A DNA stretch of 64,000 bases from Glycera tridactyla. Taxonomy: Eukaryota. Both the position numbers and the translations under genes were made by a program. The number at the start of each line of letters is the position of its first letter. Position 1 is the stretch's first letter. Positions 12,073 through 40,533 of the stretch are shown here, piece after piece. The stretch is taken from assembly GCA_965644265.1 (NCBI GenBank), contig OZ286475.1, positions 76,632,001 through 76,696,000 on the forward strand. The letters run 5' to 3'. The notes under the pieces are model-generated. The model worked only from the letters and a program-made list of their open reading frames with translations. It did not search any database and was not told the DNA's origin.

Positions 12073-12226
12073 NNNNNNNNNNNNNNNNNNNNNNNNNNNN
12101 NNNNNNNNNNNNNNNNNNNNNNNNNNNNNNNNNNNNNNNNNNNNNNNNNNNNNNNNNNNNNNNNNNNNNNNNNNNNNNNNNNNNNNNNNNNNNNNNNNNN
12201 NNNNNNNNNNNNNNNNNNNNNNNNNT
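12073..12226. other. Assembly gap (N run)
   Basis: 154 N. Confidence 0.99.
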
Positions 12227-13330: not shown

Positions 13331-13490
13331 NNNNNNNNNNNNNNNNNNNNNNNNNNNNNNNNNNNNNNNNNNNNNNNNNNNNNNNNNNNNNNNNNNNNNN
13401 NNNNNNNNNNNNNNNNNNNNNNNNNNNNNNNNNNNNNNNNNNNNNNNNNNNNNNNNNNNNNNNNNNNNNNNNNNNNNNNNNNNNNNNNNN
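13331..13490. other. Assembly gap (N run)
   Basis: 160 N. Confidence 0.99.
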
Positions 13491-15283: not shown

Positions 15284-16757
15284 TGAAGTGGATAAAACAC
15301 ACTTCTGAATATTCTATTCAATGTACTTCTCTAAGATATGATGATGGCGTGATTCAGCAATTCAACAGATCAATCATGTGAGTCAACATTCAGATAAGTA
15401 AATACAAACGAGATCAGTTCCAATATAAATGTCCAGGTTTATTGACCAACAACAAAATAGTGAGGTTGTGGTCAATAATTGAGTAATGGTTGCTAAACTA
15501 AGTGGTGCTGGAGTGCAAAGGTGATGATGAAGATGATGATGACTGATGTGACCGGTGTAGAAGGTGGAAGCAGAATGACCCTGAATACCACTGACTTTCT
15601 GGGTTTGTCACATGCATAGCATCATCGGTGGCATCATACACACCTCCCTACATCCCTGATACAACATGTTCAACCAATGACTCATTATTGAGCGCACATG
15701 CAGACCAAATCATACCACATATAATTTATGAATAAAACACATAAAACATTATGTAAAAACCATAAATATGATAACCAACATATGTAATATGACTATTATA
15801 TTTTTAATGTATATTTCAGGAAGAGGAGATCTTCATCTGTCCAGCCATTCAGTGGAAATACTGACATGACTGGAAACAATTAAAAGTGATGCAGGCTAGA
15901 AAGAGTGCATGGTCAGTCTTGCATGACAACTGCATGTAGGAGGGGTGTATGCATACACTACAAGTGATGCTGGGGTAGCTAAGGCCCCTCTCCAAAATGA
16001 CCAGTTGTCTGTACATGCATTTAACCTTTTAATGATGAGATATCATTTAGACTACATTACTGACATCTTTTAATAGTTGTCTGTTTCAGACACTGGGAAA
16101 ATGGCTGTTTCCAGACCAACCTGTCCACAGGGAAAAGGACTTCATACTAGGATGGGGGAGACTGAAAATAATAAATATCTTACATGATATATTGAAAGAC
16201 AGGACATCTAGGAGTAATTGGCTAACTTCATCATTGAAGTGTGGACTGCTGGCTTCCTAAATCAGATTGTCACTGTATTGACAATGAGTTTCCTGTTCCT
16301 GCCTGGTGTGTGTATAGTAGAAAGTGGGGGGAAAGATGCTTGCATAGGTAATTTCCCCCACACAGGACTGACTGAAACCAAACATGTTTATAGGACATTC
16401 TGTCAATTGGCAATATATTGATACTAAGAAATCTAAAGATTTCTCCTGGACATTTTCAACTGATATGAATTTCAAGACTACATGACTATAATAAAACTAC
16501 ATGTGATTAAATGGGGATTATGCATTAATATCTAGGAATACATATATGAATATATGTATATGATGACTAGGCATCAAATAAGAATAACACAATCAATACA
16601 AGTTATAATCTACAATAATAGGTAATCTGTGCAATGCACAACTCTATCAATCAATCAATCAGTGTCATAGACCTGGTCATTTCCTGACACAACACTCTGG
16701 AGAGATTCCATGCTCTCCAGTCAAACCTGTGTTGCAGGCCTCAAAATCAGACCTACA
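15284..16757 (-). repeat. 3' LTR
   Basis: TGAAGTGG...GACCTACA on the plus strand. Offset 6773 from the other copy; only two substitutions noticed by eye. Confidence 0.9.
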
Positions 16758-16761
16758 ACTA

Positions 16762-18770: not shown

Positions 18771-20114
18771 CTAAATTCTGTCTGGAATGGGTAGATGAAT
18801 ATTTACAGATGAAGATGAGTGCAAATCTAAACTAATGAGAATAATATAGGGGTAACTACAGTGTATCACACTGAGCAGAAAATGCAATAGGGAGTATTCT
18901 GTCTAAAGGTGGGAGTACATGGGGGCATCTGTACAAACAGGTGAGAACATTTCATTTGTATGGGTGACTCGCCACAGACCATTGTTAAACAGTAAATTCT
19001 GTCTAGTAGACAGCAGTGAAATGAGTTGTAGTTGGGTATACCTGCACAGGTAGGAACTGGTATACTCAAACAGGATCACTGCATAGGTGAACTGGCTTTG
19101 AGATATTTTAGAGTTGTAAACACAGCTTGTGCGGATGTGAATTATAATTCCAAATGCCCTTTTTTTTGTTTTAAATTGGGATGATTTATCCAACTTTATG
19201 AGTCAATCTGATCATCATAAAATGTTTAATGAATTATGAACATTCTATTCAACACCTTGCATGCTTCAAGTGCAGTTAGTACAGGATCAGCTATTTGATC
19301 CTCTGATTTACTGAGAAATCATCATCATGACATGATGACATGGCACAATACCTCTAGAATGTGTATTGAAGATTGCTTTGTTGAGCAATGGTGATTCAAA
19401 ACGAGAGCCTAAAGAGTCTCTACAAGTGATAGACTAACATTTTAAGGATTATGTCTCAAAACAAAGAAATCCACCAAAATGAAGGTCATGCTTGATCAGG
19501 GTCATAGATTTGATTAAATAGTGTATGAGTTATATTTTGAGAGAAAAGGATGAGGAAAGGTACAGACTTAGATATGTGAATGCAGCAATCTGACACATCA
19601 CATGATTATTAAGGGTAAGCATATCAAAGGTGGTGAGCAAGGATTACTTGTTGCACTTATACATGTATACCTTTCCATTGTGATAATACAGGGTGTACAC
19701 CATGTTCAGGGATAATTTTGCACAGTGCCCTGTGGCAAATGGCACATAAAGTTGTGAAAAGGAACATTGAACCATATATTCTGTGCCCAGAAGGCACATG
19801 GGAATTTGCATACCTTGATATGATTACATGGTTTGAGCCACATACAAATCCGAAATGGCACATGAAATCTGCATCAATGTGCCCGAAAGACCCATAGATA
19901 TTCCCGAGCAAGAAAATCCCTGCATGTTGCTGCAGAATGTGATCTAAGCACTCACACAGAAGTGTGTGTGTTTTTTTTTTTGTTATATTAAAGATTTATG
20001 AGGTGATTTTGGTGAAAAGGGAAGATTCAAGGACAATTGACACAAAAGTCATGGATAATACATGTGTGATCAGATGTGCTTGTCATGACCAAGATATTCT
20101 CATGATAATTGTTG

Positions 20115-20540
20115 AGATGAGTGGATGATTGTGTAAGATGAGTGAATGATTGAGTGAGATGAGCGAATGACTGAGTAAGATGAGTGAATGATTGAGTGAG
20201 ATGAGTGAATGACTGAGTGAATGACCGAGTGAGATGAGTGAATGATTGAGTGAGATGAGTGAATGATTGAGTGAGATGAGTGAATGACTGAGTGAGATGA
20301 GTGAATGACTGAGTGAGATGAGTGAATGACTGAGCGGGATGAGTGAATGACTGAGTGAGATGAGTGAATGATTGAGTGAGATGAGTGAATGATTGTGTGA
20401 GATGAGTGAATGACTGAGTGAGATGAGTGAATGACTGAGTGAGATGAGTTAATGATTGAGTGAGATGAGTGAATGACTGATTGAGATGAGTGAATGACTG
20501 AGTGAGACGAGTGAATGACTGAGTGAATGATTGAGTGATT
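20115..20540. repeat. 21-bp minisatellite (GATGAGTGAATGACTGAGTGA)n, about 20 units
   Basis: Directly visible; gives the LTQSFTH-repeat pseudo-ORF. Confidence 0.93.
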
Positions 20541-22028
20541 GAGATGTTTTTGGGCCACAACAGAAGGTGTGGGTTCATGAGTACAGACAAAGGTGTCATT
20601 TCAGAGCAAATAATGTTGTGATTTACATGTTAAATTTAATCAATTATTGATTTTCCTGAGTGAAATTGGTCATTGATATCATCATGAGTGACTCAAGATA
20701 ATAAGTGGGTCACTAAGTGAATACCAGATCAGACAGGTAACGTGTCCATTCAGTTTGCAACTGATCATTTGTTCAGTTAAGGAATGAACTGAGGTAGCAT
20801 ATGTAGTCATACAATTTCTTTGGATCTGGGTGAGTCATGAATGAATGTGCACCTGAATGTTTTTGGATCGATGGGTTTATGTACAGGGATATGGGTCAAT
20901 TGTGCACTAATGGGGGATGTATTCCTATAGTTCAAAACAATACAAATATGAAGAAACCTGAGAACCATTACTGCCTATTGATGACAAACTGTGTACACAT
21001 ATGGATGGGAACACATCTCTGACAGTCAAAACTGCAGTCAAAGCTTTTCCAAGCAAAATCACATCAATATTTCTTCACAACATGGAAATCTTTACATGTA
21101 GAAGGAAAAAGAAATGGTGAGAAGCATGAGAACCATTACTGCCTATTGGTTGAAATCTATGCTGAGAGCACATATCCAACATTCAAAACTGCAGTCAAAG
21201 CTTTCCAAGTGAACCCACATCAATCTCTCCAGAACATGTACATTGTTAATCAAGGTAGGGCTAGGATCCTTGAAAAGAAATGCTAAGTTCTATAACATAG
21301 TCTCCATTAGCCTGGTTGGCCTCTACAGTTTGTCTGATGAGTGGAATAGTTCTCCAGTTGTAGTACCTGCTGATTCATGATGAAACTTGTATTTGATCTA
21401 GTGACTTTTAAAATGTGACTCCATAATGAATGACTAGCACTGAACTATAAAGCTTTTCACATACATGCCTAAAGTCAATATTTCTGCATTCCAAAATACA
21501 TTCTCCATACATACATCACACAAATTTCTCATACACTCAGATTCAGATAGTTGAATAAAGGTGCTTTCACCAGCCGCATCTACTTGTCAGTCAAACATGA
21601 CACAGGTACGTACCGATCTGTGTGACTGGCAAAGTGTGTGCATTGGGTGCGCAGATTGAGAAATTCAGGCGACATGGAGGAAAACGCATTACATAGAGTG
21701 GCACTTACCATGCGTAGTGGGAGGCGTGTTGCTCTGCTTTAGGTGTCGTCATCTTCCTCGGAGTGGTAGCCATTGTCTGGTTGAGTCAGTCTAACTAGCT
21801 TTTCAAATTCTATGTGAAAGGCGATGCAAACTGGACAATGTGTGCATGCACATGCATTATTTTGTGAGTCACAGCTGGTACACAGCAAACAGGACTTTCG
21901 TCATGAATAGCGATCAAGATATTCAGCAAATTTGGCGAATCTTGTGTCAAAGTGTGAAGAAATTCACGAACAGTTTTTGAGCGATATAGAAGCACTAATG
22001 CTGACCATTTCCGTTGTGATTATGAGAC

Positions 22029-22056: not shown

Positions 22057-23530
22057 TGAAGTGGATAAAACACACTTCTGAATATTCTATTCAATGTACT
22101 TCTCTAAGATATGATGATGGCGTGATTCAGCAATTCAACAGATCAATCATGTGAGTCAACATTCAGATAAGTAAATACAAACGAGATCAGTTCCAATATA
22201 AATGTCCAGGTTTATTGACCAACAACAAAATAGTGAGGTTGTGGTCAATAATTGAGTAATGGTTGCTAAACTAAGTGGTGCTGGAGTGCAAAGGTGATGA
22301 TGAAGATGATGATGACTGATGTGACCGGTGTAGAAGGTGGAAGCAGAATGACCCTGAATACCACTGACTTTCTGGGTTTGTCACATGCATAGCATCATCG
22401 GTGGCATCATACACACCTCCCTACATCCCTGATACAACATGTTCAACCAATGACTCATTATTGAGCGCACATGCAGACCAAATCATACCACATATAATTT
22501 ATGAATAAAACACATAAAACATTATGTAAAAACCATAAATATGATAACCAACATATGTAATATGACTATTATATTTTTAATGTATATTTCAGGAAGAGGA
22601 GATCTTCATCTGTCCAGCCATTCAGTGGAAATACTGACATGACTGGAAACAATTAAAAGTGATGCAGGCTAGAAAGAGTGCATGGTCAGTCTTGCATGAC
22701 AACTGCATGTAGGAGGGGTGTATGCATACACTACAAGTGATGCTGGGGTAGCTAAGGCCCCTCTCCAAAATGACCAGTTGTCTGTACATGCATTTAACCT
22801 TTTAATGATGAGATATCATTTAGACTACATTACTGACATCTTTTAATAGTTGTCTGTTTCAGACACTGGGAAAATGGCTGTTTCCAGACCAACCTGTCCA
22901 CAGGGAAAAGGACTTCATACTAGGATGGGGGAGACTGAAAATAATAAATATCTTACATGATATATTGAAAGACAGGACATCTAGGAGTAATTGGCTAACT
23001 TCATCATTGAAGTGTGGACTGCTGGCTTCCTAAATCAGATTGTCACTGTATTGACAATGAGTTCCCTGTTCCTGCCTGGTGTGTGTATAGTAGAAAGTGG
23101 GGGGAAAGATGCTTGCATAGGTAATTTCCCCCACACAGGACTGACTGAAACCAAACATGTTTATAGGACATTCTGTCAATTGGCAATATATTGATACTAA
23201 GAAATCTAAAGATTTCTCCTGGACATTTTCAACTGATATGAATTTCAAGACTACATGACTATAATAAAACTACATGTGATTAAATGGGGATTATGCATCA
23301 ATATCTAGGAATACATATATGAATATATGTATATGATGACTAGGCATCAAATAAGAATAACACAATCAATACAAGTTATAATCTACAATAATAGGTAATC
23401 TGTGCAATGCACAACTCTATCAATCAATCAATCAGTGTCATAGACCTGGTCATTTCCTGACACAACACTCTGGAGAGATTCCATGCTCTCCAGTCAAACC
23501 TGTGTTGCAGGCCTCAAAATCAGACCTACA
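22057..23530 (-). repeat. 5' LTR
   Basis: Near-identical to 15284-16757. Confidence 0.9.
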
Positions 23531-23829
23531 ACTTGTACATCTCACGATGATCGTTTGATGGATTTTTGTTCAGGTTGAACCATACCATTTGAAGAGGATA
23601 GGATTTGAAGAGGGACACACCAACTACGTGTCATAAGCAGGTGGAATATTAGCAACCACACGGGAATGATGATTCACGAGGCAATGGTCAGCTCGTTGCT
23701 GCATTTAAGCTATTCAGCTACATCGGAGAAATGCTACAAATTGTTATTCCCATATGCTGACCAACTATTACAAGTCAAGGACCAATTTTCACAGCTTGTG
23801 ATATAGCAAGACTATATGGCCCTGAAGTA

Positions 23830-26800
23830 AATACGCAATACCAAACAAGGTGTGAATTTCACAGGATGTCTCGAGGCTGAAGCCCGAGTGACCTCCAGAG
23901 AAATTCACACTGAGTTTGGTATTGCATTTTTACCTAACGGTCATATATTCTTGCTTTCATCACATGGATTAGGAGAGAAATCATCTAAAAGTAATTCTCA
24001 ATACTCAACACCTGATACTTCGATTAAAATGGCACATCCATGTGATAGCAATCGATACAACCCACAGCAAGAGATAGGGAATGGATGGATACCTGGCAAG
24101 AAGAAATGGACAACAATAGAATTCATTGTTGCTATGAATACAGCCTTCGTTCACAGGTGAGGCGATTGGATATAATCATGTCTGCAGAGTTTCTGACATT
24201 GATTACATTGCAGACAAACGACCCCATAATTCTATGTCACAATCGCTTGTCACATGTCTGTGGCGGCACGCTTCTCCGATGATGACATCGCTTGGTTCTA
24301 TGAGTACAGACTGCATTTATTCACAGTTCTTTTTATAGATGACATCAGTTTTGTTTATCATTTGTGTACTCACGAACGAGAGCAAAAGTTGATGGCGCAC
24401 ATTTTTCTCACTGGGAATAATCCATCTCACATTTTTGCCGAGAAAGTACTGAGCTGAATGAACGAACGAACAGACAAACAGCTCACCAAACAAAGTAGTC
24501 TCGCATGAATAATACACATGCAAAACATTTATGAACGCTGGAAATAGGCTGACATTTGCATAGTTCGACTGATGTACTGAGGCAAGCCTGAAACTGTGAA
24601 TAATATACAATATAAAGGAGGCAGGGAGCCCTCATTCCCTCAAACTAAACACACACGCAAACACACACACAAACACACACACACACGAGCATATACAAAC
24701 ACACACAAGCATAGATATACACACACAGGCGTGCTCGCACAAGAGCATATACAAACACACACAAGCATACAGATACACATGTACAAACACATATGAAGTG
24801 TTGTTTGTGTACAGATTATCCCATGCATCCTTCCTCATGGCATGATTCAGTTCTGAGCAAATACTAAGTGGTAGAAATCACCTACGATACGAATACCGAA
24901 AAACGAGCAAAATGCTAAGTGGTGGAAATCACCTCCGATACAGATTACGGCCTCAATTTGAAAATTCTGACTACTAGTTCAACTTTCAGTCTATGAAATA
25001 ATTCATACAGCTTCAATTCATTTTCTGATCTTCAGACACTGACCACTCATCTTCAGAAGCCAGCTGCTTATAAAAGCAGGATGTATCATGTCCAACCTCT
25101 CCAATTCTTCATGCGACCACTTGGTGGTATTTCTGAACATATTTGATCATGTGTGAGCTTTAAATGCAAACCATCTGTTGCATGCCCCTTTTGTCGTTCA
25201 TCAGATGTGGCAGTAATTTGGTGAATGGGCCGGACGTTCATGTGCTGTATTTTCTGAATGTCTGTCAGTGATATTGATGTATTTGTGATGTGGACTACGT
25301 GATATTCAGAACGTATGGCTATCAGCTTGGTAGCATGTGACAGATGCATATGGGCACAGTCGAACCTGTTGAAAGAGGCAGCCTCAAGTTGCATCAGAAA
25401 GCAGCTCCATAGCTCATTCAATGTGAAAAAGGCTATCATAGCCACAGCTCAGGGTGGCCCTTGGTACAGAAATGAAGCTGGAGTGTCATGCACTATGAAG
25501 TAATTTTCACGCTTCATTCATGCCAGTTTCTTTAGTGAGATCATCAGTGATGACCGCGGAGAGACATCAAAAGGAGAAGTCCTTAGAATAGCAGGTCATA
25601 AAAATGCACACTTATGGGATATCTGAGACCACCAGAAGAAATTTTTGAATCGAACGACTGACATTTGAATATGAATGGTATTGGCCGAAGGCCCCTATTG
25701 GAGTCAATGTGAAGAATTATTTTCTTTTTCTTAATTTCATTTTTCGATTAAATCTTCAGCTAAAATACTCCATTGATTCTCAACATATTCCTGCAATTAT
25801 TCTACCGATCGTATTCATTGATGTTCCTCATATAGTTATCATCAAAGGGTAATGCTTCCAGGAAATAAAAACTGCAAGAAGATTCTATACAGATATGAAC
25901 TTGCCATATCATCTTCTTGGTTGTCATAATTTTTTTTTGTTATATGTTGAATATATGTTAAAACTCACGTTGCTTGAATTCAGGCACCCAAGATCAAGAC
26001 TGCATTGGACTGCAGAAGCCAGATTGCAACTGCAACTGCCTTGCCATACTGGGAATTAAGATGGAATTCAAATGGTCAATGCAATTCAATGATGGGAGGC
26101 AAGCTAGTCACATGCGGTATGCACCAGATGTGATTTGAACTTTCATTATACACAGGCAGTTGTTTGTCGTCCATCGCAACCCTCTTATGCCTGCATGTGA
26201 TTATTTGTTCCTTTGTTTGGGTTTGACGTCCTTTCAACCATCATTGGTTAGATCAGTCTGAAATTAAGAATGTTGAAGAAAGAGGCACCGCTACCTGGGA
26301 GTGTTTCTACTCTTTGTGAAGGACAGCGGTGCTTCTTTTACGTGCTCACAGGAAGAGACTCCCACAGACATGGTTGGCCTTCTATATCCCAGTCGATATG
26401 CACTCCCCTTCAATTAGAAACCAAAAAGGAGGAATCTTTCATTGAATAGATGTCCAAATACGTTGATGTTGCAGGAAGTAACAACCAAGTCATATGAAAA
26501 CTGGTAAAATGCATTCATGCGAGTTAAGACATGATCCACCAGGGCAACATGAATGCTATAACAAGCTCCTCAATTTTATTGGGATGGTCTACGTCAAATA
26601 TCGGTTGTGCACACTCTCTGTGAAAGGTGTGATATTGATAAGGGAACATTTTCAATTCATCCACCAACAGCTGTGGTTGCGTGTAATTGTATGATAGAAT
26701 CCAAATTGTCAAAGATAAAATGATGAATGTATATGCTGTGTACCCTGAATTATGATTCCCCCCCCCCCCCCCCCGTGCCACAATAATGCTATACCAAGCT

Positions 26801-27516
26801 CATCAATCAAATCGGGATGGTTTACGTCAAATATGAGTGGTGCACAATCTCTCCTTGTGAAAGGGACAATATTGATTGGGAGCCGGTTTTAATTCATCTG
26901 CCAACAGCTGTGGCTGCATGTTATCCTATGATAGAATCAGAATCAGCAGAGGTGGAATGATGTATGTACATGATGTGTACCATGCTTTGACACGTGTTTG
27001 AACTCATGTGATGTGGCTTTGTGTATGAAAGAGGAGTGTCCATTATATGGGAGGTGTATATAATCCATGGGGGCATCCATTGTGGTATGTAATGATGAGC
27101 GGAAGCTGACTGCAAGCTGATGCTGGAGAAAGGATGTATCATAACCAGGCAGGATCCCCCGGACGTTCAGCCTCATGTGTACGAGGATCATCAGATGCTC
27201 CCGCTAACAGCTGTAGTCATTCCATGAGAGGATTCCAGGGCACGATCCCCCGGACGTTCAGCCTCATGTGTACGCGGATCATCAGATGCTCCCGCTAACA
27301 GCTGTAGTCATTCCATGAGAGGATTCCAGGGCACGATCCCCCGGACGTTCAGCCTCATGTGTACGAGGATCATCAGATGCTCCCGCTAACAGCTGTAGTC
27401 ATTCCATGAGAGAATTCCAGGGCACAATCCCCCGGACGTTCAGCCTCATGTGTACTAGGATCATCAGATGCTCCCGCTAACAGCTGTAGTCATTCCATGA
27501 GAGGATTCCAGGGCAC

Positions 27517-27519
<3 letters not shown>
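23830..27519 (+). repeat. Segmental duplication copy B (paralog of 7530-10752)
   Basis: See copy A. Ends in the 91-bp array where the virus-like DNA begins. Confidence 0.88.
27148..27519 (+). repeat. 91-bp tandem repeat, 4 full copies plus a truncated fifth
   Basis: Units start at 27148, 27239, 27330 and 27421. The fifth (27512) stops after GGCACGAT. Confidence 0.93.

Positions 27520-27588
<69 letters not shown>
27517..27588 (+). repeat. (GAT)24 microsatellite at the host/virus junction
   Basis: Perfect 72-bp tract, absent at the paralogous position (10752). Confidence 0.96.
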
Positions 27589-27589
<1 letters not shown>

Positions 27590-27694
27590 ATTAGAAGCAA
27601 ACTCTAACCAACATCCCCTTTTCTCTGTGTGTTTATATAGGGAGCGAAAAAGTATCTCAATAAGCCTCCCGATACTAGACAAGAGCTGTACGAC

Positions 27695-28745
27695 ATGGAG
27701 AAACTCCGAAAGGTTGCCGAGTCTATCGTCGGTCTCTCGTTAACCGCTTTCGCCGAACAGGATCCACAGCGTCACGTTGGAGAACGATTGCGACTTTGGA
27801 ACAATGCAGGGGAACCTATTCACGGACATCCTTGCGAACCCGCTATCGCTGAATGTGAGTTCAATTATAGATGCAATTGTTAACAAGCCCAGGGATGATG
27901 TTGCGGAACTGTGTGAGAAGTATTTCCCGGGCATCCAGATCGGGGATTTGATAGAGACAATAATGAAGGCCGATAAGTGGTACCTGTTAGTCCTGATGTG
28001 CGCCCCGACGGACTCTGATCTGCGGAAAGACGCGGGCCCTCAACATGAGGTGAATCTAGTGAACTCGTTCGAGAATTACTGAATTCACGCCCTGTGGAAC
28101 GGCTATATTCTTCCGCACATCATTGGGGCACTAGACTATCGGCGACCCCGAGGCAATGTTGGCAGAGTGGCGTTCTGGGATGATCGGAACGTCGATGAGG
28201 CCGGTTCGTCCGGCGAGGCCATTTGGCAGCGCGCCAAGAATGACGTGATTGATTCGGAAGAGGGTGTTCAAACTTTGCTTAGTCTATGCGAGGGCATGTT
28301 TTATTGTCTTACGAGTCTGAGGTGTGCCCACGAGGGGAAGGAGGTGCTCACAAAACTCACGATGGACTTGATCTACAGCTTAGAAAAAGTTATTCTCTTC
28401 GCTTCATGTATTGTAGAAACGGCCCCACAGTTCTATTCCCGATATGTGTATAATCTACCCCCTCAGATGAAATGTATGCTGGGTTCGTTACCTAAACAGA
28501 GTTACAGCCATGTGTTAGAGACGTGCAATGACTTACTGATGACGATGGAGGATGACGAGACGGCGAAACGGACCTGGTCTCAGATTATTAACAGTGAACT
28601 GCGGACAGATATGACCCCACAGGTGAAGGAGAGCAACAATAACGGACGAGACTTTACATTTACCCTAGACACGACAGACAGCCCACTCTTCAAGTCGGAC
28701 AGGTTCCTCGCAATGATGATGACGGTCGAAGAGGAAGCTGTTTAA
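27695..28745 (+). pseudogene. Disrupted orphan viral gene (~350 aa)
   Basis: ORFs 27777-28082 and 28167-28745 are one reading frame broken by a single TGA at 28080-28082. The ATG at 27695 is in another frame, suggesting a frameshift near 27745-27780. Confidence 0.62.
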
Positions 28746-28767: not shown

Positions 28768-29940
28768 TTGATGACGGAGGCGCTACACTATTACATTGCA
28801 ACACAACAGTTGAATCGGGCCATGGACCTGGTCGCCGAGGCCCTTTCAGAACCCCGGAGAGGAAAGATTTGCGGGAGCGATAAAGTGTCGCCCCAAAGGA
28901 GGGAGATGGAGATCGGGCTCTCGGCACAGTTAAAGAACTACGTCCCGATCAATCTCAACGACTTCGAGCGAGACGACAGTGAAGACGACAGCGCCTCCGC
29001 GGAGGACGGCAATCCCATAGACCACCTCACGAGATGGATGTGGGAGATGAGATACGAGTTTCTCATGGTATTCGTCTATCATCTCCTGAGCCACGGGCCG
29101 CTGCCGGGCTATATTTGTTGGGAGCACGTCGCCAACCTGGTCACGATGGCAAGGGAATTCCCTAAAAACATGCACTGGACAACCAGATGTTGGTGCGAGG
29201 TAGAGCACGACCTCGAGAAATACCCAACACTGAACGAAGCCATCTGTTCAAAAATGACGACGGATTCGGAAATTTGGCGGGAGAAACGTGAGCGCTGTGG
29301 ATGCGCCACCCTAAAGGGCCCGCTTCGAAATGACATTCTGGAAGACGCTCTCACATATCTCGTAAAGGAGAGAAAGGAGTACAGCGAGGCGCCAGAACAA
29401 CTGGTGATGAACATGGCTTTTGGCCTGTATCAGTACTTCACCAAGTTGAACCGGGAGACCAAAGTTAACAGGCTGGCCATCAACGAACTGGCGGCACTCT
29501 CTATAGAGCAGACACTGGCCCTCTGCATTCCAAACCCGCTACGCGCGGAGGAACACACGGTCAAGTCGACTCGGCGATGGACTCCCGCCGGCGACCTCCT
29601 GGGAATGGAATGGAAACTGTACCCAAAAGCATGGTGTAGCCTCATGACGGAGCTACAAACAAACCGCCTGCTAATGACTCAGGAGGACGCGAACGGGGGG
29701 TTTCTCGGACTTGGAAAACACCTTCACGCCCACCTCATTCTGACAGAGATCCCGTTCCAATGTAGAATGCAAGATGGACACGTGACTGACGACAGCGACG
29801 ATGACGACAGCGACGACGACGACGACGACATACCGATGAAACCAGACGTGTACTCCGCCAAGAGATTGGCGTGTGCAGAGACCCGACTCAATAAGAAATC
29901 TGTTATAAATAGTTCGGAGTCGGCGCTCCACCGTTCGTAA
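28768..29940 (+). CDS. Orphan viral protein, 390 aa
   Basis: Long ORF with normal composition and an acidic tail; ATG at 28771. No family recognised. Confidence 0.75.
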   Translation: MMTEALHYYIATQQLNRAMDLVAEALSEPRRGKICGSDKVSPQRREMEIGLSAQLKNYVPINLNDFERDDSEDDSASAEDGNPIDHLTRWMWEMRYEFLMVFVYHLLSHGPLPGYICWEHVANLVTMAREFPKNMHWTTRCWCEVEHDLEKYPTLNEAICSKMTTDSEIWREKRERCGCATLKGPLRNDILEDALTYLVKERKEYSEAPEQLVMNMAFGLYQYFTKLNRETKVNRLAINELAALSIEQTLALCIPNPLRAEEHTVKSTRRWTPAGDLLGMEWKLYPKAWCSLMTELQTNRLLMTQEDANGGFLGLGKHLHAHLILTEIPFQCRMQDGHVTDDSDDDDSDDDDDDIPMKPDVYSAKRLACAETRLNKKSVINSSESALHRS

Positions 29941-31484
29941 TTTTCTTGACTCTCGACATCGAAGGGGTCTTCGTTTGTGTCTTCGTGAACGTTCTCGTTA
30001 TTCTCCCCAGCTTCCTCTTCCTCTTTCACCGCTTTTCGAAGCGTTTCTTGAAATCTGTCTATGGCCTGTAGAGTTAGGGAAGATAGAACCACTAACGTCT
30101 TGTTAGCCCCCAGACCAATATTCACCCGCTCCCTCAAGGTCTTCTTAACTTTGTGATTGAGAAGACGTCGTCGCCTGGAAGCGTCGTTGGAACAAAGAAC
30201 GGTTTCGCGACTTAGAGGGGGGCCCCACAGGTGATGGTGATTTAAACGCCGATCGCAGAGCACCCACTGATCGGTTGAATCGAGCGGACGCCAGTTGGCG
30301 TACTGGTCTTTGTGCAACTCCGTGAGTATCGTGAGTCGATTTAAAATCCCGCAATGTTCGGAGGTTGTGATCGGCTTTCGTTTCGAGTTGAAGAGGGAAA
30401 GTTCGAAAACGGAGTTGGTTAAGAAAACTTCGAGAGCCTCCACGTCGTTCGGGTCTTCGTCCTCGTAAACTGTTACGGGTCCATCTACTCCCTCTTTCCA
30501 TTCGCCGAAAAACTTTAGGCTTGTGGCGAGACTGTTGGTCGGCTTGCTACTCGGAGTCGATCCCTGCGGCAACCACGTGTTCTTCAGCGTGGTGTGTCTA
30601 TAGGGGTTGTTCGGCAGCGTGGCCTGCTCGGCGGCTCCGTCGTTATTCGTGGTCTTTGGGCCGCCGCCGCGACCGAGCCTGGAACTGTTTTGAGCGGGGG
30701 CTCTGAGACATCCCAGTGGGGAATTCGGGTTGCATATTTCGTCGACGATGTTCCGATGACTTTGAGAATCTTCGTGAACGGCCATGAGTTTCAGGAGAAG
30801 TCTCATGCTCAGACGCCCGTTGTCCACGTAGACCCTGTTGATCGGGTTCGTTTGGGATATGCGCCAATAATAATGCATCATGTCTCGTATGAGAAACACC
30901 TGGTTGGGGCGCGTGCAGTTAGAATAGCTGTTGAAAAGACAGATCTCGAAACATCGCTTATCGACAAGCGCGTTAAGATAGAACGGAAACATGCTGTTCT
31001 CCCAGACGTTCTTTTTTTCGTCGGGCGTCTGCGATTGACGCGCGTAGAGTTCCAGGGCTTGCGTTTGGTCGATGTTCGTGTCGGCGAGGAGCTCGGAGAG
31101 AAATTCTAACCGCTGACTCTTTGCATTCACGTCCACTCCTAGAAAGATCGCCGCGCAGTTTAAGACGCGGAGTTTCACCAAATCGAGTGTTTCGATTTCG
31201 ACAACGTCCTCCAGATCTTTGAAGCAGCGGAGGAGATTTTTTAAAAGGGTCTTTATCTCGTCTAGTTCCTCTTTGTCGGGAAAGCCGTTTAGAGTAGAGG
31301 GTAGAATAAGATCGAGAACGAATCGCTCTAAACTCATCAGGTTGTAGTGCTTGGACGACTGGATGTAAGATATCTCCTCCTGTTCCATCTTCACGGCAAC
31401 GCAGAGCATGGTCTTTAGCACGGTGTTTAAAACCGGTAGGAGAAAATCATCGTGGGCGATCTGCGGGTATCTGAGCGCGTCCAT
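29724..31484 (-). CDS. Orphan viral protein, 586 aa, Leu-rich helical N-terminus
   Basis: Long ATG-initiated ORF with an upstream TATATA at ~31580. The 3' end overlaps the 390-aa gene by 217 bp. Confidence 0.8.
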   Translation of the reverse strand: MDALRYPQIAHDDFLLPVLNTVLKTMLCVAVKMEQEEISYIQSSKHYNLMSLERFVLDLILPSTLNGFPDKEELDEIKTLLKNLLRCFKDLEDVVEIETLDLVKLRVLNCAAIFLGVDVNAKSQRLEFLSELLADTNIDQTQALELYARQSQTPDEKKNVWENSMFPFYLNALVDKRCFEICLFNSYSNCTRPNQVFLIRDMMHYYWRISQTNPINRVYVDNGRLSMRLLLKLMAVHEDSQSHRNIVDEICNPNSPLGCLRAPAQNSSRLGRGGGPKTTNNDGAAEQATLPNNPYRHTTLKNTWLPQGSTPSSKPTNSLATSLKFFGEWKEGVDGPVTVYEDEDPNDVEALEVFLTNSVFELSLFNSKRKPITTSEHCGILNRLTILTELHKDQYANWRPLDSTDQWVLCDRRLNHHHLWGPPLSRETVLCSNDASRRRRLLNHKVKKTLRERVNIGLGANKTLVVLSSLTLQAIDRFQETLRKAVKEEEEAGENNENVHEDTNEDPFDVESQENYERWSADSELFITDFLLSRVSAHANLLAEYTSGFIGMSSSSSSLSSSSLSSVTCPSCILHWNGISVRMRWA

Positions 31485-31671
31485 GGTTGAGAGAGATTAG
31501 AGAGAATTCTGGTTCTTACCCTTAGGTTCTATCGACTATTAGGCACAGAGGACACAAATAAATGGGTCATCGTTATCATCATATATAGATTTATTTTTAA
31601 ATGTACACGGTTACAAGAGACACACATATTAATAAAATAGTTAGAGTCCAGATGAGGATTTGAACCATCTC

Positions 31672-33555
31672 CTATTCTGAATAGCTGCCCTCGCTTTCGC
31701 TATCACTCGTGGACTCGCTATCACTCGCGGATTCGCTTTCGTATTCGCTCTCGTATTCGCTCTTGTTCGTGGTGGTGGTGCTGCTGTCCTTCCCCTTGGT
31801 ATTGCTTTTGTTCTTATTCTGGTCCTCCTTTTTATGTAAGGGAGATCTCGCGCGTACCTGAACCCTGGAGTCGATGGAAGTTTCCTTCTTTATGATATTG
31901 AGGTCTGTCCTATCAACGACTTGTTGGTCGGGTTTGAATGGAGCGGCGTTTAGATCCTGAGTAAACTCGACTGCATTATTGGAGGTCACCGCCATCTTTG
32001 TTTTAATTCGGGGATCCATGTTCATCCCGGCGTCGCCATTCAACCTCATTTTTTTGCTTGAAGTCGCCTCTTCTTCTTCTTTTTGTTGTTTTAGTTTCCT
32101 CTTCGATGATGATGATGCCGCTGACGCAGGTTGGGCCTCGACCCCATTTGTCTTTTCAGTATCGAGGGTAACCATACCGGTGTTCACCCACTCGTCTCTT
32201 CTACGTTTTAGTTCCTCCGTCACATGGTCCGTGACCTTCTGGAAATCGGGGAAAAGTGAGGGATCGCAGCGTCCTCGATGGAGCGCGGATCCAATGGTCC
32301 TCGGGACCAACTTGAAAGTCTGGCCGTTGTGGTGTATCGGTTTGGACAGATAGGGAGTTGTCTCCATGAATTGTTGAGTCCAATACAAACAGGGTGGCAT
32401 ATTCCCATGATACATGGAGCCCTTGCCGTCCTCCTTGGTCACACATTTTGGTAGATGGTAGAATAGGTTGCCGATTACTCGCACGAGGTCATACTTGATG
32501 TTTTTGAACGTAGAGGGGGAGGAGGCGTAGACATTTATCGATGCGTGTTCCCGGTGAATCTCGGGGTCGTAAACGTAATCGGTATTATCGGTTTGATGGA
32601 AACAGAAGATACTCTTCTTCGTCTGTTTCTTTTTTGTAGCTGTCTCGTTGACGGAGCTCTCCTTACTGGATCCCTCTCCCTTCTCCTCCTCCTTCTCCTT
32701 TTTCATTTTTTTAAACTTTGAAGATTGCTCCGACTTGATTTTCCACTCCGGCGCTTTCAGTTCGGCAATAACGGGGGATTTCGAGTTCCTCCCTTCCACC
32801 CCTCTCTTTTCATAGGTGTAGGTGAACAAGAGATTGTAGTTTGCACCCTGAGCGTAAATTTTACCTTGTAGGTTATGCTCTATCGCCGGAATGTATATCT
32901 TCGCGGAGATTTTTACATTTGTTTCGGGTTTTTCGTTTTTCAGGATCTCCTCGTATTTGGAGATCTCGTCCGTCAGACTCTTAAAACTCGTGGCCTTGTC
33001 TCGCTCTTTAATGCAGATGTAGACAATGTAGTTGGGAGCGTTCTCTTCTTCTTTTTTAACACTCTTCGGTTTTAGGAGAATCAACATGTTGACCTTGGAC
33101 TGCCCCATGTTTTTCCAGGGTATGGTTGCGGCGAGTGTTTTACGGAGGTGCTCCTCAAACTCAGCCTCGGTTGTTTTATCGGCATTCTTGATCCTGATGT
33201 GGAGAACAAATCGTTTCCTGTCAGAACCGTTCGTCGATATGCCCCGGGCGGCAAATTCATATCCGATGAACTTTTCCACAAACTGTTGAATGGCGAGGTT
33301 CGGAGCGATCTCCGATATCTGAATGGGTTTGTACTTCTCGGCCATTTTGTTCTTTTCTGCGACTTCCTCTGTCTCCTTTGGTTCTTTTTCAGCGGGCTCC
33401 GAGTCTGTAATACTGGAAACTATATTCGCCATGTCCTGAGAAACTGATGAATCGGCGCTTAATTTATCTTCACTAGCTGTAACGTCACCGCTACTGCCGT
33501 CGCTGCTGACATCGTCGTTGCTGTTGTTGTTGTTGCTGTCACCGAAAGGCCACAT
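31672..33555 (-). CDS. Orphan viral protein, 627 aa, Lys-rich with acidic Ser/Glu repeat tail
   Basis: Long ATG-initiated ORF; AATAAA on the minus strand at ~31588 downstream of the stop. Confidence 0.82.
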   Translation of the reverse strand: MWPFGDSNNNNSNDDVSSDGSSGDVTASEDKLSADSSVSQDMANIVSSITDSEPAEKEPKETEEVAEKNKMAEKYKPIQISEIAPNLAIQQFVEKFIGYEFAARGISTNGSDRKRFVLHIRIKNADKTTEAEFEEHLRKTLAATIPWKNMGQSKVNMLILLKPKSVKKEEENAPNYIVYICIKERDKATSFKSLTDEISKYEEILKNEKPETNVKISAKIYIPAIEHNLQGKIYAQGANYNLLFTYTYEKRGVEGRNSKSPVIAELKAPEWKIKSEQSSKFKKMKKEKEEEKGEGSSKESSVNETATKKKQTKKSIFCFHQTDNTDYVYDPEIHREHASINVYASSPSTFKNIKYDLVRVIGNLFYHLPKCVTKEDGKGSMYHGNMPPCLYWTQQFMETTPYLSKPIHHNGQTFKLVPRTIGSALHRGRCDPSLFPDFQKVTDHVTEELKRRRDEWVNTGMVTLDTEKTNGVEAQPASAASSSSKRKLKQQKEEEEATSSKKMRLNGDAGMNMDPRIKTKMAVTSNNAVEFTQDLNAAPFKPDQQVVDRTDLNIIKKETSIDSRVQVRARSPLHKKEDQNKNKSNTKGKDSSTTTTNKSEYESEYESESASDSESTSDSESEGSYSE

Positions 33556-34621
33556 TTTTAAAATTGTCTTCTATGTGACTAATTACGGCATTTTGCGATA
33601 AATGCGGTTCCCAAATAACACAAGAAAAAGTCCCAGTGTTGTTGATCGAGCTATATTTAGAAATATCGCATGGAAACACGCCGTCTCCCCAATCATGGAA
33701 GGGCATCTTTCCTGTAATCTCGCCCCCTCCCGCCTCATCCTCCGATAAGATCCGACCCCACGCGGAAACATGGTAATTTTCCGCTACGACTTTCCCACAG
33801 AAGATCGGAGCCCCGGTGAAGAGAAATCGGTCACTGTTATCCGGGTCAAGCATCACGTGCGTTCTGGTCTCGCCCACTTGTATGGTTTCGAACTCTAACA
33901 GGATCCTCTCGACATCAAGGTCGTCTAGGACACTGGATATGTCAAGTCTATCGAGATCATCCGATAAGATTAGGCCACTTGTCTCGTTAATAATTCTCTT
34001 AATTAAACTTTCTGTCGAATGAAACAACATTGGTAAATCCGACAGCTCCAATTCGAGGTTCTCCCACTCGTATTCTAGACCGGGCAAGTGAAGTCGAGGA
34101 AAAAGTGACTCTTTCAAGTCGGCTCGTTTTCCGAGTTGGTTGATGATTTTGAGAACATCGCCAGCCTGATTCGAAACATATTTAATCTCACCGCCGCTCT
34201 TTCGCATTTGGATATTTTGAAGACGGTAGTACGCGTTGAAGGCATGTTCTAATTCTTTCTTGAGGATGCGAAGACGCGAATTTCGTCGCTCGGGGGATCC
34301 TTTGGGCACGGGTTTTTTTAATTGATGAATCTGAATAAAAATCTTGATGACGAGATAGATGAACTTTTGCACCTCCCTCCCCCAATTTAAATATGCGGCG
34401 AAGGAGTCGGACGTGCAGTTCCTCAGGATCGAAGATGATATCTTTGAAGTGGCGGGCGGATTCCTTGTCTCTATCCTCTTGACCTCGATATCGAGACATG
34501 CCGACACACTAATATGTGCCGCGTGATCAGCGAATCCTCGCTCATGTATAAAGTCCACATGGTCGGACATTCCGATTCTCGCGTCCGATAATTGGTTAGA
34601 GGGGGGCGATAAGGCCGTCAC
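33539..34621 (-). CDS. Orphan viral protein, up to 360 aa
   Basis: Long ORF whose stop overlaps the 627-aa start by 17 bp. The true start is probably the internal ATG (MSDHVDF). Confidence 0.75.
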   Translation of the reverse strand: MTALSPPSNQLSDARIGMSDHVDFIHERGFADHAAHISVSACLDIEVKRIETRNPPATSKISSSILRNCTSDSFAAYLNWGREVQKFIYLVIKIFIQIHQLKKPVPKGSPERRNSRLRILKKELEHAFNAYYRLQNIQMRKSGGEIKYVSNQAGDVLKIINQLGKRADLKESLFPRLHLPGLEYEWENLELELSDLPMLFHSTESLIKRIINETSGLILSDDLDRLDISSVLDDLDVERILLEFETIQVGETRTHVMLDPDNSDRFLFTGAPIFCGKVVAENYHVSAWGRILSEDEAGGGEITGKMPFHDWGDGVFPCDISKYSSINNTGTFSCVIWEPHLSQNAVISHIEDNFKNVAFR

Positions 34622-34659
34622 GTGATGAGGCCACGTGGGTTTTATGGTGTCCTATATAA
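34619..34659 (+). promoter_or_regulatory. Pol II promoter: two CACGTG E-boxes plus TATATAA
   Basis: CACGTG at 34619-34624 and 34632-34637; TATATAA at 34653-34659. Followed by an ATG-free leader ending in a strong AG|GTGAGT donor. Confidence 0.68.
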
Positions 34660-36348
34660 CTTCAGTCGGGGATCCTCTGCGGAATCGATCCATTCGGGAC
34701 TGGACGACTAACAAGCTTCACCGCCACTAATCACCAGCACTTCGCGGAGCTCTCTGTCTCTGATTTCTTTGTCAGTGGAGCCTCATCCGAGAATCAAACA
34801 AGGGAAGATCCAATCGCGAGGAAAGCGGGATCGCCGATCGATACTTCTTAACAGAGAGATCCATATATAAGGTGAGTTATCGTTTATAAAAACACTTCAA
34901 AGGACCTGGGCAAACATGCGGCCACCTGATTGTTCACACAGGGGGGCTCGATCCCCGATAAAGGGGTTTCTCGGTTCTCACCGTTATCGTCGCCGCCGCC
35001 GCTTCTCACGATCATCATTGTCCTTGTCGCCATGATTGTCCTTGTCGCCGTCGCTCCCGTTCCCCGTTTTGAAGATGGAGGAATATTCAACGGGGTCGAA
35101 TTTGGCTTTACATATGATATCCAATGTGGCTCTCATTATGAAAACCAGAGTATTACACTCTCATGTCGGCGATAACTATAGCGATATCGAGGATTCTTTG
35201 ACTACTAGTAGTGGTGGTGACTCTGGTACTACCGAAAGTAACGGGAGCAATAGCAACGGAGGCCATTTTTATGAACCGGAGAGCGGAAAATTATGCGAGG
35301 ATCACTTTAACTGTAGAGAGTCTCGACTGGTTTTTCTTCGGGGATTCTTTAACGGAGGAAAACATGGTTCCCAAAACACGGATGCGTGAGAGTGCTTATA
35401 TTTACTCCGATTAGTCTATGTATTCGGAAGCTCTTATCTATCTATCTGTCTATCTATCTTTTTGTTTATGTTGCTCTTTATCTGTCTATCTATCCTATCT
35501 ATTTACCTGTCTATTTATCCATCTATCCGCCCATCTACCTACCCATCCATCCATCCATCCATCCATCCATCTACCATCTGTCCATATATTCGTGCCCCCC
35601 TGATCTAATTTTCCTCGTTTCTTTTTCTAATCTTATAGTTGTGGCTGTGTTATTGACGAATATCGGGGAAAGGAGGAAGTAGAAGAGAACGAAGAGGCGA
35701 ACGAGTGGTCCCGCGTTCTACAGTATTTGCGGATAAGCTCCACCTCCATAAAACTTCATCGCCGAGGACTTCGTTCCGGAGAGAAAGTTTTGGCCGGGTC
35801 CGTTGACGGTCTTTATCCGCCCAAAGGATCAGCGGACTTCATCTCGCTAGTTCGACTCCAGACGGTCAACTTACCTTCTGCTCAATCATCGAGGCCGTCG
35901 CCCCCGCCGTCACCCTTCGTTCATGTGCCGACCCCTTTTAGCGCCGCCCGGCGCCCAGTGGAGCGACACGTGGAGAGAATGCAAAACGGTCACGTCACAC
36001 TGAGTCCAAGGAAATCGGATATCTTGATATCTACAGCAATACAGGCTGTTACAGGTAGTGTCAATCACGGGTCTGAAAATACCAGGACGACTAGTCAGAA
36101 CTACGCAGTTATTAGATCTATACTTAATGGGAAATCGCTCAACGATAAAACAACAACACATAAGAGTACCACCCCTAATAATAGTGTCGGTGCTCTCAAC
36201 GGAACTTTTGTCGGGGACGAGGATCTAAGAAGAAGTATTTTTTTTGGTCTTGGTGGCTCCCCTATCGACTTTATTACAGGCGATCTGGAACTTTCGGGGA
36301 GCGCGCTGTCATCATCGGTCTCAAACGATAGGCTGTATTATCATTGTC

Positions 36349-36383
<35 letters not shown>

Positions 36384-36675
36384 GCAATTTATTCAACAAC
36401 GAACCAACTAACAGAAATATATCCAACACAGGTAGAGACAATACCCACACAGGTAGAAGACATATTGCGTAGCGCGATGGATGGTGCAGGTATTGGTGCA
36501 GGAGAGACCATGTTACCTGCGGAGACATTAAGTAATCAAACAATCAATCAATCGGAACTGGATAGTATTTTATCAAATGTGTCTTTTCCAGAGTTCCTCG
36601 ACTTCGCATCACTTCAACCTCTTGGCGACAATAATCTTACTCAAACAATAATACCGCCACCACCACCACAACCAC

Positions 36676-36709
<34 letters not shown>

Positions 36710-39302
36710 CAGTTGGCCAGTGGGAACTCAACCCACAATGGCTCCAAGGAAAGACATTGAGAAATCAGTAGCGGGCAACCAAACACCACCCACAGAAACA
36801 CCACAGAGACCAATATCAAACAAACAAATAGCGAGCAAAACAAAACCCAAATCACCAACACCGCCATCATCTCCAAACAAAACCATACCAAGAAACACTA
36901 AAGAGGGGGATTCTGATAACTTTTCTGACGACGTGCTAACCCTACATCCAGAAGGGGATTGGGATGCGAGTGGTGGTGGTGGTGGTGCTGGTGGTGATGA
37001 CGACCACAATGATAGTGTTGTCGTTTCTGGTTCTGTTCATATCGGGGACAAGTTCTCGGGTGTCGAACCACATCGGTCGAAGAAATCGGGGGGGAAGAAG
37101 AAACGGGGTGTCTCCAAACCAAAGGGGGGTGGGGAATCATCATCATCCTCCTCCAAACCAGACTCGACTTCGAAGAAGGACTCGGGTAGGAAAAGGACTA
37201 GCGAGTCCGCTTCCTCTCCGTCCGAATCGCCTATTAAAGTGTCGTCACCGAGAGGGTTAGAAACCCCACCGGGGAGCGGAAAAACCACGCGGCGAGAAAA
37301 AAAAGAAAATCGAATTCTTCTTCCGAAGATAGACCGGAGGATAAAACGAAGGCCCCTAAAAGAAAAAGGAACCAGAAGGAAGTGTGCGAAAATAGCTTCC
37401 TAGAGAACACTCCCGCGTCAGGAATATCTCGACTATACCTAAGATACCAAAGAAGACGTCGGGTACGTCATCGTCTTCTACTTCTACCCAACAGGCCTCT
37501 ATCACTTCACTGATCTATAAATCTCCTTTGACCCCACAAGAGGAAGTTTCCGAAAATTGTTTCGAATCCCCCACGACGATGAGGCCACGTGGGTTTTATG
37601 GTGTCCTATATAACTTCAGTCGGGGATCCTCTGCGGAATCGATCCATTCGGGACTGGACGACTAACAAGCTTCACCGCCACTAATCACCAGCACTTCGCG
37701 GAGCTCTCTGTCTCTGATTTCTTTGTCAGTGGAGCCTCATCCGAGAATCAAACAAGGGAAGATCCAATCGCGAGGAAAGCGGGATCGCCGATCGATACTT
37801 CTTAACAGAGAGATCCATATATAAGGTGAGTTATCGTTTATAAAAACACTTCAAAGGACCTGGGCAAACATGCGGCCACCTGATTGTTCACACAGGGGGG
37901 CTCGATCCCCGATAAAGGGGTTTCTCGGTTCTCACCGTTATCGTCGCCGCCGCCGCTTCTCACGATCATCATTGTCCTTGTCGCCATGATTGTCCTTGTC
38001 GCCGTCGCTCCCGTTCCCCGTTTTGAAGATGGAGGAATATTCAACGGGGTCGAATTTGGCTTTACATATGATATCCAATGTGGCTCTCATTATGAAAACC
38101 AGAGTATTACACTCTCATGTCGGCGATAACTATAGCGATATCGAGGATTCTTTGACTACTAGTAGTGGTGGTGACTCTGGTACTACCGAAAGTAACGGGA
38201 GCAATAGCAACGGAGGCCATTTTTATGAACCGGAGAGCGGAAAATTATGCGAGGATCACTTTAACTGTAGAGAGTCTCGACTGGTTTTTCTTCGGGGATT
38301 CTTTAACGGAGGAAAACATGGTTCCCAAAACACGGATGCGTGAGAGTGCTTATATTTACTCCGATTAGTCTATGTATTCGGAAGCTCTTATCTATCTATC
38401 TGTCTATCTATCTTTTTGTTTATGTTGCTCTTTATCTGTCTATCTATCCTATCTATTTACCTGTCTATTTATCCATCTATCCGCCCATCTACCTACCCAT
38501 CCATCCATCCATCCATCCATCCATCTACCATCTGTCCATATATTCGTGCCCCCCTGATCTAATTTTCCTCGTTTCTTTTTCTAATCTTATAGTTGTGGCT
38601 GTGTTATTGACGAATATCGGGGAAAGGAGGAAGTAGAAGAGAACGAAGAGGCGAACGAGTGGTCCCGCGTTCTACAGTATTTGCGGATAAGCTCCACCTC
38701 CATAAAACTTCATCGCCGAGGACTTCGTTCCGGAGAGAAAGTTTTGGCCGGGTCCGTTGACGGTCTTTATCCGCCCAAAGGATCAGCGGACTTCATCTCG
38801 CTAGTTCGACTCCAGACGGTCAACTTACCTTCTGCTCAATCATCGAGGCCGTCGCCCCCGCCGTCACCCTTCGTTCATGTGCCGACCCCTTTTAGCGCCG
38901 CCCGGCGCCCAGTGGAGCGACACGTGGAGAGAATGCAAAACGGTCACGTCACACTGAGTCCAAGGAAATCGGATATCTTGATATCTACAGCAATACAGGC
39001 TGTTACAGGTAGTGTCAATCACGGGTCTGAAAATACCAGGACGACTAGTCAGAACTACGCAGTTATTAGATCTATACTTAATGGGAAATCGCTCAACGAT
39101 AAAACAACAACACATAAGAGTACCACCCCTAATAATAGTGTCGGTGCTCTCAACGGAACTTTTGTCGGGGACGAGGATCTAAGAAGAAGTATTTTTTTTG
39201 GTCTTGGTGGCTCCCCTATCGACTTTATTACAGGCGATCTGGAACTTTCGGGGAGCGCGCTGTCATCATCGGTCTCAAACGATAGGCTGTATTATCATTG
39301 TC

Positions 39303-39337
<35 letters not shown>

Positions 39338-39629
39338 GCAATTTATTCAACAACGAACCAACTAACAGAAATATATCCAACACAGGTAGAGACAATACCC
39401 ACACAGGTAGAAGACATATTGCGTAGCGCGATGGATGGTGCAGGTATTGGTGCAGGAGAGACCATGTTACCTGCGGAGACATTAAGTAATCAAACAATCA
39501 ATCAATCGGAACTGGATAGTATTTTATCAAATGTGTCTTTTCCAGAGTTCCTCGACTTCGCATCACTTCAACCTCTTGGCGACAATAATCTTACTCAAAC
39601 AATAATACCGCCACCACCACCACAACCAC

Positions 39630-39663
<34 letters not shown>

Positions 39664-40533
39664 CAGTTGGCCAGTGGGAACTCAACCCACAATGGCTCCA
39701 AGGAAAGACATTGAGAAATCAGTAGCGGGCAACCAAACACCACCCACAGAAACACCACAGAGACCAATATCAAACAAACAAATAGCGAGCAAAACAAAAC
39801 CCAAATCACCAACACCGCCATCATCTCCAAACAAAACCATACCAAGAAACACTAAAGAGGGGGATTCTGATAACTTTTCTGACGACGTGCTAACCCTACA
39901 TCCAGAAGGGGATTGGGATGCGAGTGGTGGTGGTGGTGGTGCTGGTGGTGATGACGACCACAATGATAGTGTTGTCGTTTCTGGTTCTGTTCATATCGGG
40001 GACAAGTTCTCGGGTGTCGAACCACATCGGTCGAAGAAATCGGGGGGGAAGAAGAAACGGGGTGTCTCCAAACCAAAGGGGGGTGGGGAATCATCATCAT
40101 CCTCCTCCAAACCAGACTCGACTTCGAAGAAGGACTCGGGTAGGAAAAGGACTAGCGAGTCCGCTTCCTCTCCGTCCGAATCGCCTATTAAAGTGTCGTC
40201 ACCGAGAGGGTTAGAAACCCCACCGGGGAGCGGAAAAAACCACGCGGCGAGAAAAAAAAGAAAATCGAATTCTTCTTCCGAAGATAGACCGGAGGATAAA
40301 ACGAAGGCCCCTAAAAGAAAAAGGAACCAGAAGGAAGTGTGCGAAAATAGCTTCCTAGAGAACACTCCCCGCGTCAGGAATATCTCGACTATACCTAAGA
40401 TACCAAAGAAGACGTCGGGTACGTCATCGTCTTCTACTTCTACCCAACAGGCCTCTATCACTTCACTGATCTATAAATCTCCTTTGACCCCACAAGAGGA
40501 AGTTTCCGAAAATTGTTTCGAATCCCCCACGAC
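34624..40533 (+). repeat. Head-to-tail tandem duplication (34624-37577 and 37578-40533)
   Basis: Offset 2954 throughout. Junction ...CCCCCACGAC|GATGAGGCC. Copy 1 lacks one A (37280-37284) and one C (37412-37414). Confidence 0.96.
35075..37577 (+). pseudogene. Truncated and frameshifted copy of the spliced IE-like gene
   Basis: Same exons and introns as 38029-41725 (introns 34872-35074 and 35386-35638), but with two 1-nt homopolymer deletions and cut by the duplication junction. Confidence 0.82.

Follow-up and report, generated by a model that had tools for sequence, protein, structure and literature searches.

A perfect trinucleotide repeat separates animal DNA from herpesvirus-like DNA in the 64,000-nucleotide stretch analyzed here (the window), which raises the question of whether this repeat is a signal for viral integration or a scar left by the repair of a break. 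On the host side, four complete 91-bp tandem units at 27148–27511 (locus B, plus strand, 97% matches) are followed by a fifth unit that is cut after 8 nt (GGCACGAT, 27512–27519, plus strand). GAT forms the last three bases of this 8-nt remnant and is the sole sequence visibly common to the unit and the tract. The perfect (GAT)24 tract occupies 27517–27588 (plus strand) and gives way to TAT TAG on the element side. The original prediction had described a fifth unit running into 24 GAT copies. This arrangement was confirmed, but the count includes the unit's own GAT, leaving 23 extra triplets. The tract is uninterrupted, in phase with the host GAT, and has the highest copy number among the 32 perfect 2–5-nt repeats listed for positions 1–46944, the runner-up having 12 copies.

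A third-order Markov classifier whose training DNA came from distant parts of host and element placed the host/element change point at 27636, about 50 nt from the tract. Left of position 28000, the CpG observed/expected ratio was 0.28–0.63 in 13 of 14 2-kb bins and 0.97 in the remaining bin; right of it, all 18 bins gave 0.94–1.24. Because the repeat with the top copy number adjoins the change point and CpG shifts there too, the location of the tract is not a matter of chance, and the tract marks a real host/virus boundary. The host is probably an invertebrate whose DNA is methylated. Assembly misjoins typically arise where a short pure repeat lies between unrelated sequences, and the host part contains two sized N gaps (12073–12225 and 13331–13490). 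However, near-identical 8-kb copies were resolved in the same assembly, suggesting long reads, and even a misjoin through the 72-bp repeat presupposes that the unit-to-GAT join of the host is real. We consider a misjoin the least probable account of the junction.

The host segment left of the tract (23801–27516, plus strand) is paralogous to 7496–10752, at 85–93% in most blocks and 65% in one block, and ends abruptly at the tract. At the end of that duplicated segment, the paralogous host array (10571–10752, plus strand) holds two units without the tract and terminates exactly on a unit end. The locus at 10752 had been proposed to approximate the pre-insertion state. The tract is indeed absent there, but the array has only two units and offers no empty allele. 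With 53 substitutions and 24 gap columns across 953 compared with locus B, the paralog is a diverged duplicate and not an empty site. It is also too diverged to exclude a younger host tract, so that the repeat might have come first, having arisen as a microsatellite within the array, as a piece of a HINE-type element, or as the tail of a retroposon, with the virus joining beside it. A tandem array plus a microsatellite is the mollusc HINE layout in the accessible text of one report (PMC7492417). This order of events nevertheless appears very unlikely: all six complete 91-bp units have at most one GAT at the tract position, and GAT runs of four copies are absent from the host part. No stable hairpin was found. 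For the 52-nt segment that follows the tract, the best match in the rest of the window had E 0.08 and was not significant, and no 11-mer (at most one mismatch, either orientation) is common to 27589–27700 and the 198 nt left of the array. HINE and retroposon-tail origins were both rejected on these results; the subterminal inverted repeats and 3' palindrome of a HINE/Helentron non-autonomous element were not found around the array and microsatellite. Two further host features stand apart from the junction. A direct repeat of 1477 bp (15284–16760 and 22057–23533) differs by only 2 substitutions and is much younger than the surrounding duplication, and a MITE-like 66-bp inverted repeat (80%, 19-nt loop) lies at 23805–23955, near the start of the duplicated host segment.

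The identity of the element was addressed through a 549-aa ORF at 45308–46957 (plus strand), which falls into the herpesvirus UL49/ORF66/BFRF2 fold family and whose C-terminus is cut by an inversion join at 46945. A search of 1.84 billion representatives gave 58 relatives of this ORF at E ≤ 0.001, and modeling the ORF together with these relatives gave a pLDDT of 80.9. The best fold match of the model was an abalone herpesvirus protein (E 4.8e-20, TM 0.55), followed by OsHV-1 ORF61, cytomegalovirus UL49, and gammaherpesvirus ORF66. Ten fold matches reached E ≤ 0.001; two are unnamed, and the eight named ones are all herpesvirus proteins. Judged from this model, the element is herpesvirus-like and closest to the malacoherpesviruses; the gene behind this assignment is a single one, located 18 kb away from the join. 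Pfam returned no match for the 25 relatives scanned (25 of the 58) and nothing above its cut-off for the element frames. No terminase, DNA polymerase, or major capsid protein was recognized by Pfam among 11 element frames, the unique element DNA in view amounting to about 16 kb. The same 11 frames held no tyrosine recombinase, DDE, or piggyBac integrase or transposase; the element is only partly in the window and continues past its end at 64000. A homolog search with the 59-sequence alignment of the 549-aa ORF family was empty, and PHROGs gave only two rows, at E about 0.09. Searches of the PDB by sequence and by Foldseek were uninformative, as was VIA-align, whose best Z of 6.8 was to helical bundles. 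Leads from Atlas were weak or absent, Rfam gave 0 hits, and the phage collection no match.

The element is also scrambled. Four densely packed open ORFs at 28771–34570 (389 aa on the plus strand; 586, 627, and 343 aa on the minus strand) have no Pfam match. A long ORF rich in Gln, Ser, and Arg is preceded by two apparent spliceosomal introns (34872–34941 and 35386–35638). A tandem duplication of about 2.95 kb spans 34624–40533 (plus strand) with 0 substitutions and 2 gap columns, and its join at 37577/37578 has 0 bp of exact microhomology. From 40759 to 64000, units of about 8.1 kb run head to tail (starts at 40759, 48883, and 57019), each with an inverted 1.94-kb piece. These copies, about three in number, differ by 1–5 substitutions (over 99.7% identity), and the join at 48883 shares 1 bp. 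The amplification is either a very recent event or an assembly effect. Each unit contains a nuclease-like ORF, a small membrane-protein-like ORF, the truncated UL49-like ORF, and an inverted partial copy of the nuclease-like ORF. The inversion cuts the UL49-like gene in all three copies, so that profile positions 4–436 of 534 are covered, and 48 of the 58 relatives extend 81 or more residues beyond the cut.

The nuclease-like ORF encodes 783 aa (42222–44573, plus strand) and is present in three full copies plus inverted partial copies. It carries a motif that we take to be PD-(D/E)xK-like, and its predicted product is possibly alkaline-nuclease-like. Sequence search found no relatives of it, the Atlas lead was weak, and a single-sequence model reached a pLDDT of 33.5. 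Herpes alkaline nucleases are able to promote strand annealing, and strand annealing by this product might bear on the scrambling. Of the three internal rearrangement joins, all recent, the two that could be scored share 0 and 1 bp, and one cuts a core-like gene; such joins speak for end joining as the origin of the tract junction as well. Given three such joins in a scrambled element, the join under study may itself be a secondary rearrangement and not the original integration end. The duplication join (37570–37590) resembles the host join (27512–27525) in that CAC(G) precedes and GATGA follows each of them, probably by chance.

The viral side of the join bears on whether the tract lies at a genome end. 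Between the tract and the first open frame is a 52-nt non-coding segment (27589–27640, plus strand). From its motifs, it looks like either the end of an intron or a two-way promoter of a decayed viral gene. As an intron end, it has a branch-like CTAAC, a pyrimidine run, and TAG/G. The acceptor at 27640 ranks first of 1969 AG sites under a simple score that was built after the site was seen; under 2000 random weightings, its median rank is 1 and its worst 7. Rank 2 of 1969 belongs to the probable element intron at 35386–35638 (plus strand, GT..AG, phases fit), and another presumed acceptor, at 34941, ranks only about 108th on the same score. As a promoter, the segment has a TATA box, TATATAGG on the plus strand and TATATAAA on the minus strand. 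TATATA occurs at six sites in unique element DNA; the junction copy lies 62 nt ahead of the ATG, and the other five lie upstream of gene starts. The best TATA, the full TATATAAA on the minus strand, faces left to the tract, where no viral gene is present now. Upstream of the first ATG, the coding signal is weakly diagnostic (5.9% of 170 coding versus 3.3% of 184 non-coding windows). Since the segment fits the gene that follows it, as acceptor or as promoter, the join is probably internal to the virus and not a genome end. If the segment is an intron end, the break must have been internal; if it is a promoter, an internal break is suggested, but a natural genome end beside the tract would also be compatible.

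The gene that follows (27641–28745, plus strand) is decayed, with a frame change near 27740–27790 and an in-frame stop at 28080–28082. Past it, open ORFs span 89% of the next 15.2 kb of unique DNA. The concentration of both lesions in this gene while its neighbors are open corresponds to a rough p of 0.006, a value that is partly circular. The junction gene gave nothing above the Pfam cut-off and had no relatives in a homolog search among longer proteins only.

The homology at the join is slight. Host and tract visibly overlap by 3 bp. Of random joins to a GAT tract, 9.5% of those made within the unit and 8.1% of those made in host DNA reach at least 3 bp. The 91-bp unit holds two 4-bp anchors, both unused. 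Polymerase theta joining uses 2–6 bp of microhomology in the available text of PMC7165422; the 3-bp overlap falls inside this range, yet near chance, and by itself does not prove microhomology repair. No copy of the 8–15 bases left of the tract was found to its right, and neither the rest of the unit nor post-array host sequence was found there. The original prediction had drawn an analogy to HHV-6, which is not supported at this join, where the host gives a single GAT (3 bp) and no array, where 8–10% of random joins reach the same overlap, and where the viral side does not resemble a genome end. Both sources that the prediction proposed for the tract, slippage in the course of repair and a viral-side tract annealed through GAT microhomology, are still the two best options.

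Synthesis of the tract during repair, with a GAT-bearing host end priming repeated, slipped synthesis before joining the viral end, would agree with a perfect tract that keeps the phase of the host GAT. According to the accessible part of PMC7165422, templated insertions arise through repeated cycles of polymerase theta, and two lesions in the junction gene beside open neighbors would fit error-prone synthesis near the join. However, templated insertions in that source are mostly 3–30 bp, and 69 extra bases would need many cycles. The degenerate TAT TAG edge on the viral side and the GAT/ATC seeds that the element already has also argue against new synthesis, which we regard as unlikely.

The content of the element points instead to a viral seed. 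The element (16.4 kb) has 16 perfect trinucleotide runs of at least 4 copies, and the host (27.5 kb) has 2 (p 1e-5). None of the 16 is longer than 12 copies, and because most lie in coding DNA, the enrichment makes the argument for a non-coding source look stronger than it is. Three GAT/ATC runs of 4 copies occur in the element, one of them intergenic at 41952, and none in the host. The second element intron (35386–35638) likewise contains a simple repeat, TATC/CCAT. OsHV-1 offers a parallel, a length-variable non-coding trinucleotide repeat upstream of ORF4, described in the available text of PMC3897894. Taken together, the GAT/ATC runs of the element and the OsHV-1 parallel make a viral seed, perhaps lengthened by slippage, the most economical source of the tract. 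A second copy of the viral side of the join was not seen in the window.

We infer a viral origin of the tract, an internal break, and a repair pathway, and we lean modestly toward reading the tract as an end-joining scar at a viral non-coding GAT microsatellite and not as a targeting site. A herpesvirus-like genome would have broken internally at its own (GAT)n microsatellite, within an intron or a divergent promoter region. The viral end would then have joined a host break in the fifth 91-bp unit, with the 3-bp GAT serving as primer or the join being near-blunt, and the tract may have grown by slippage, either as the break was repaired or afterwards. The join could date from the initial insertion or from a subsequent deletion in which the original end was lost. 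Scars of polymerase theta resemble such a join in their 2–6 bp of microhomology and possible templated insertion, as far as the accessible text of PMC7165422 goes, but the tract, if it is an insert, exceeds the usual length and purity.

Repeat-targeted integration would have the virus ending in (GAT/ATC)n, or encoding a repeat-targeting integrase, with the tract as its true end. The longest perfect repeat of the region does sit exactly at the boundary, and the second join at 37578 likewise has GATGA on its right side. Published systems add plausibility: in the available portions of the respective reports, nimaviruses target repeats through integrases (PMC10871703), one AciHV-3 junction lies beside a single TTAGGG (PMC12031113), and mobility genes are enriched in deep-branching herpesvirus elements (bioRxiv 10.1101/2025.04.19.649669). 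However, the host supplies one GAT, while 17 longer GAT-phase runs of 8–11 nt in the host part were left unused, and Pfam revealed no integrase or transposase in the 11 element frames of an element partly in the window. Only 52 nt separate the tract from coding DNA, and the element is scrambled, whereas nimavirus and HHV-6 integrants are intact. Targeting is thus distinctly unlikely. A more specific version, in which (GAT/ATC)n is the terminus or the target of a deep-branching lineage of invertebrate herpesviruses, a single host triplet suffices as anchor, and the tract is the true left end, is a slim prospect. GAT/ATC-linked herpesvirus integration would be new if true, since the literature consulted (titles and abstract openings, with few subscription papers) contained no herpesvirus integration through GAT/ATC repeats; one junction with a 3-bp overlap does not carry that claim.

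Known herpesvirus integration systems differ from this junction. HHV-6, MDV, and AciHV-3 also have a simple repeat at the herpesvirus–host junction, but they carry large terminal TTAGGG arrays, which in AciHV-3 run from 1087 to 39,907 bp in the accessible text of PMC12031113. Here there is no telomeric array, only a 72-bp tract with a 3-bp overlap. Extended homology between viral end and host repeat is the hallmark of telomere-integrating herpesviruses, and 3 bp are visible at this join. Two or more copies of TTAGGG or TTAGG are absent from both strands of the window, which places the element outside the telomere-integrating group. Teratorn is likewise herpesvirus-derived DNA in an animal chromosome (PMC10175614, available text), but it targets TTAA and has an inverted repeat end starting with CCYT, whereas the element side here begins TATTAG with no TTAA at the join. 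No piggyBac transposase was present among the frames scanned, and the best match here is malacoherpes-like. Lacking a TTAA end, the element is not a Teratorn member. The only TTAA in 27400–27800 sits about 150 nt inside the element. Telomeric and TTAA integration routes were both rejected, for want of a telomeric array in the window and of TTAA at the join.

A repeat-guided route through a non-telomeric repeat had been thought new, but the available text of PMC10871703 already describes sesarmid nimaviruses inserted in (AT/TA)n and two whispoviruses in 28S rDNA. Endogenous nimaviruses are comparable in that they, too, are large DNA viruses next to simple repeats, some of them non-telomeric such as (AT/TA)n. 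They insert into existing host tracts, at both ends, by means of tyrosine recombinases or a Ginger2 transposase, none of which was seen for the part of the element in the window, and they are unrelated to the virus here. Closer relatives may be the herpesvirus-like endogenous elements of Branchiostoma and Capitella and the starfish and ribbon-worm regions mentioned in the accessible parts of PMC5552708 and bioRxiv 10.1101/2025.04.19.649669. Like those malacoherpesvirus-like elements, ours has herpesvirus-like genes in animal DNA, and its fold matches include an abalone herpesvirus protein (the best) and OsHV-1 ORF61, but the element here is scrambled and amplified and its junction is resolved to the base, whereas the accessible text gives no junction sequences for the others.

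The cited papers, in the parts available, describe no integration mechanism for invertebrate herpesviruses. Most likely, this locus is a base-resolved example of a large DNA virus entering or rearranging in an animal genome via ordinary break repair, and as such it illustrates that repeats found at junctions are not always targeting signals. Were GAT/ATC tracts also present at the far end and in further copies of the element, a testable integration route for invertebrate herpesviruses would follow; if targeting is true, it would be the herpesvirus counterpart of the repeat-specific nimaviruses. The element itself appears to be a spliced, divergent herpesvirus relative, of modest value in itself.

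Elsewhere in the host part, a 21/42/63-bp minisatellite occupies 20113–20543, and a non-LTR retrotransposon remnant on the minus strand (250–2025 and 4245–5165) retains a reverse transcriptase (Pfam RVT_1, E 5.6e-35) and a coiled-coil ORF1-like frame.
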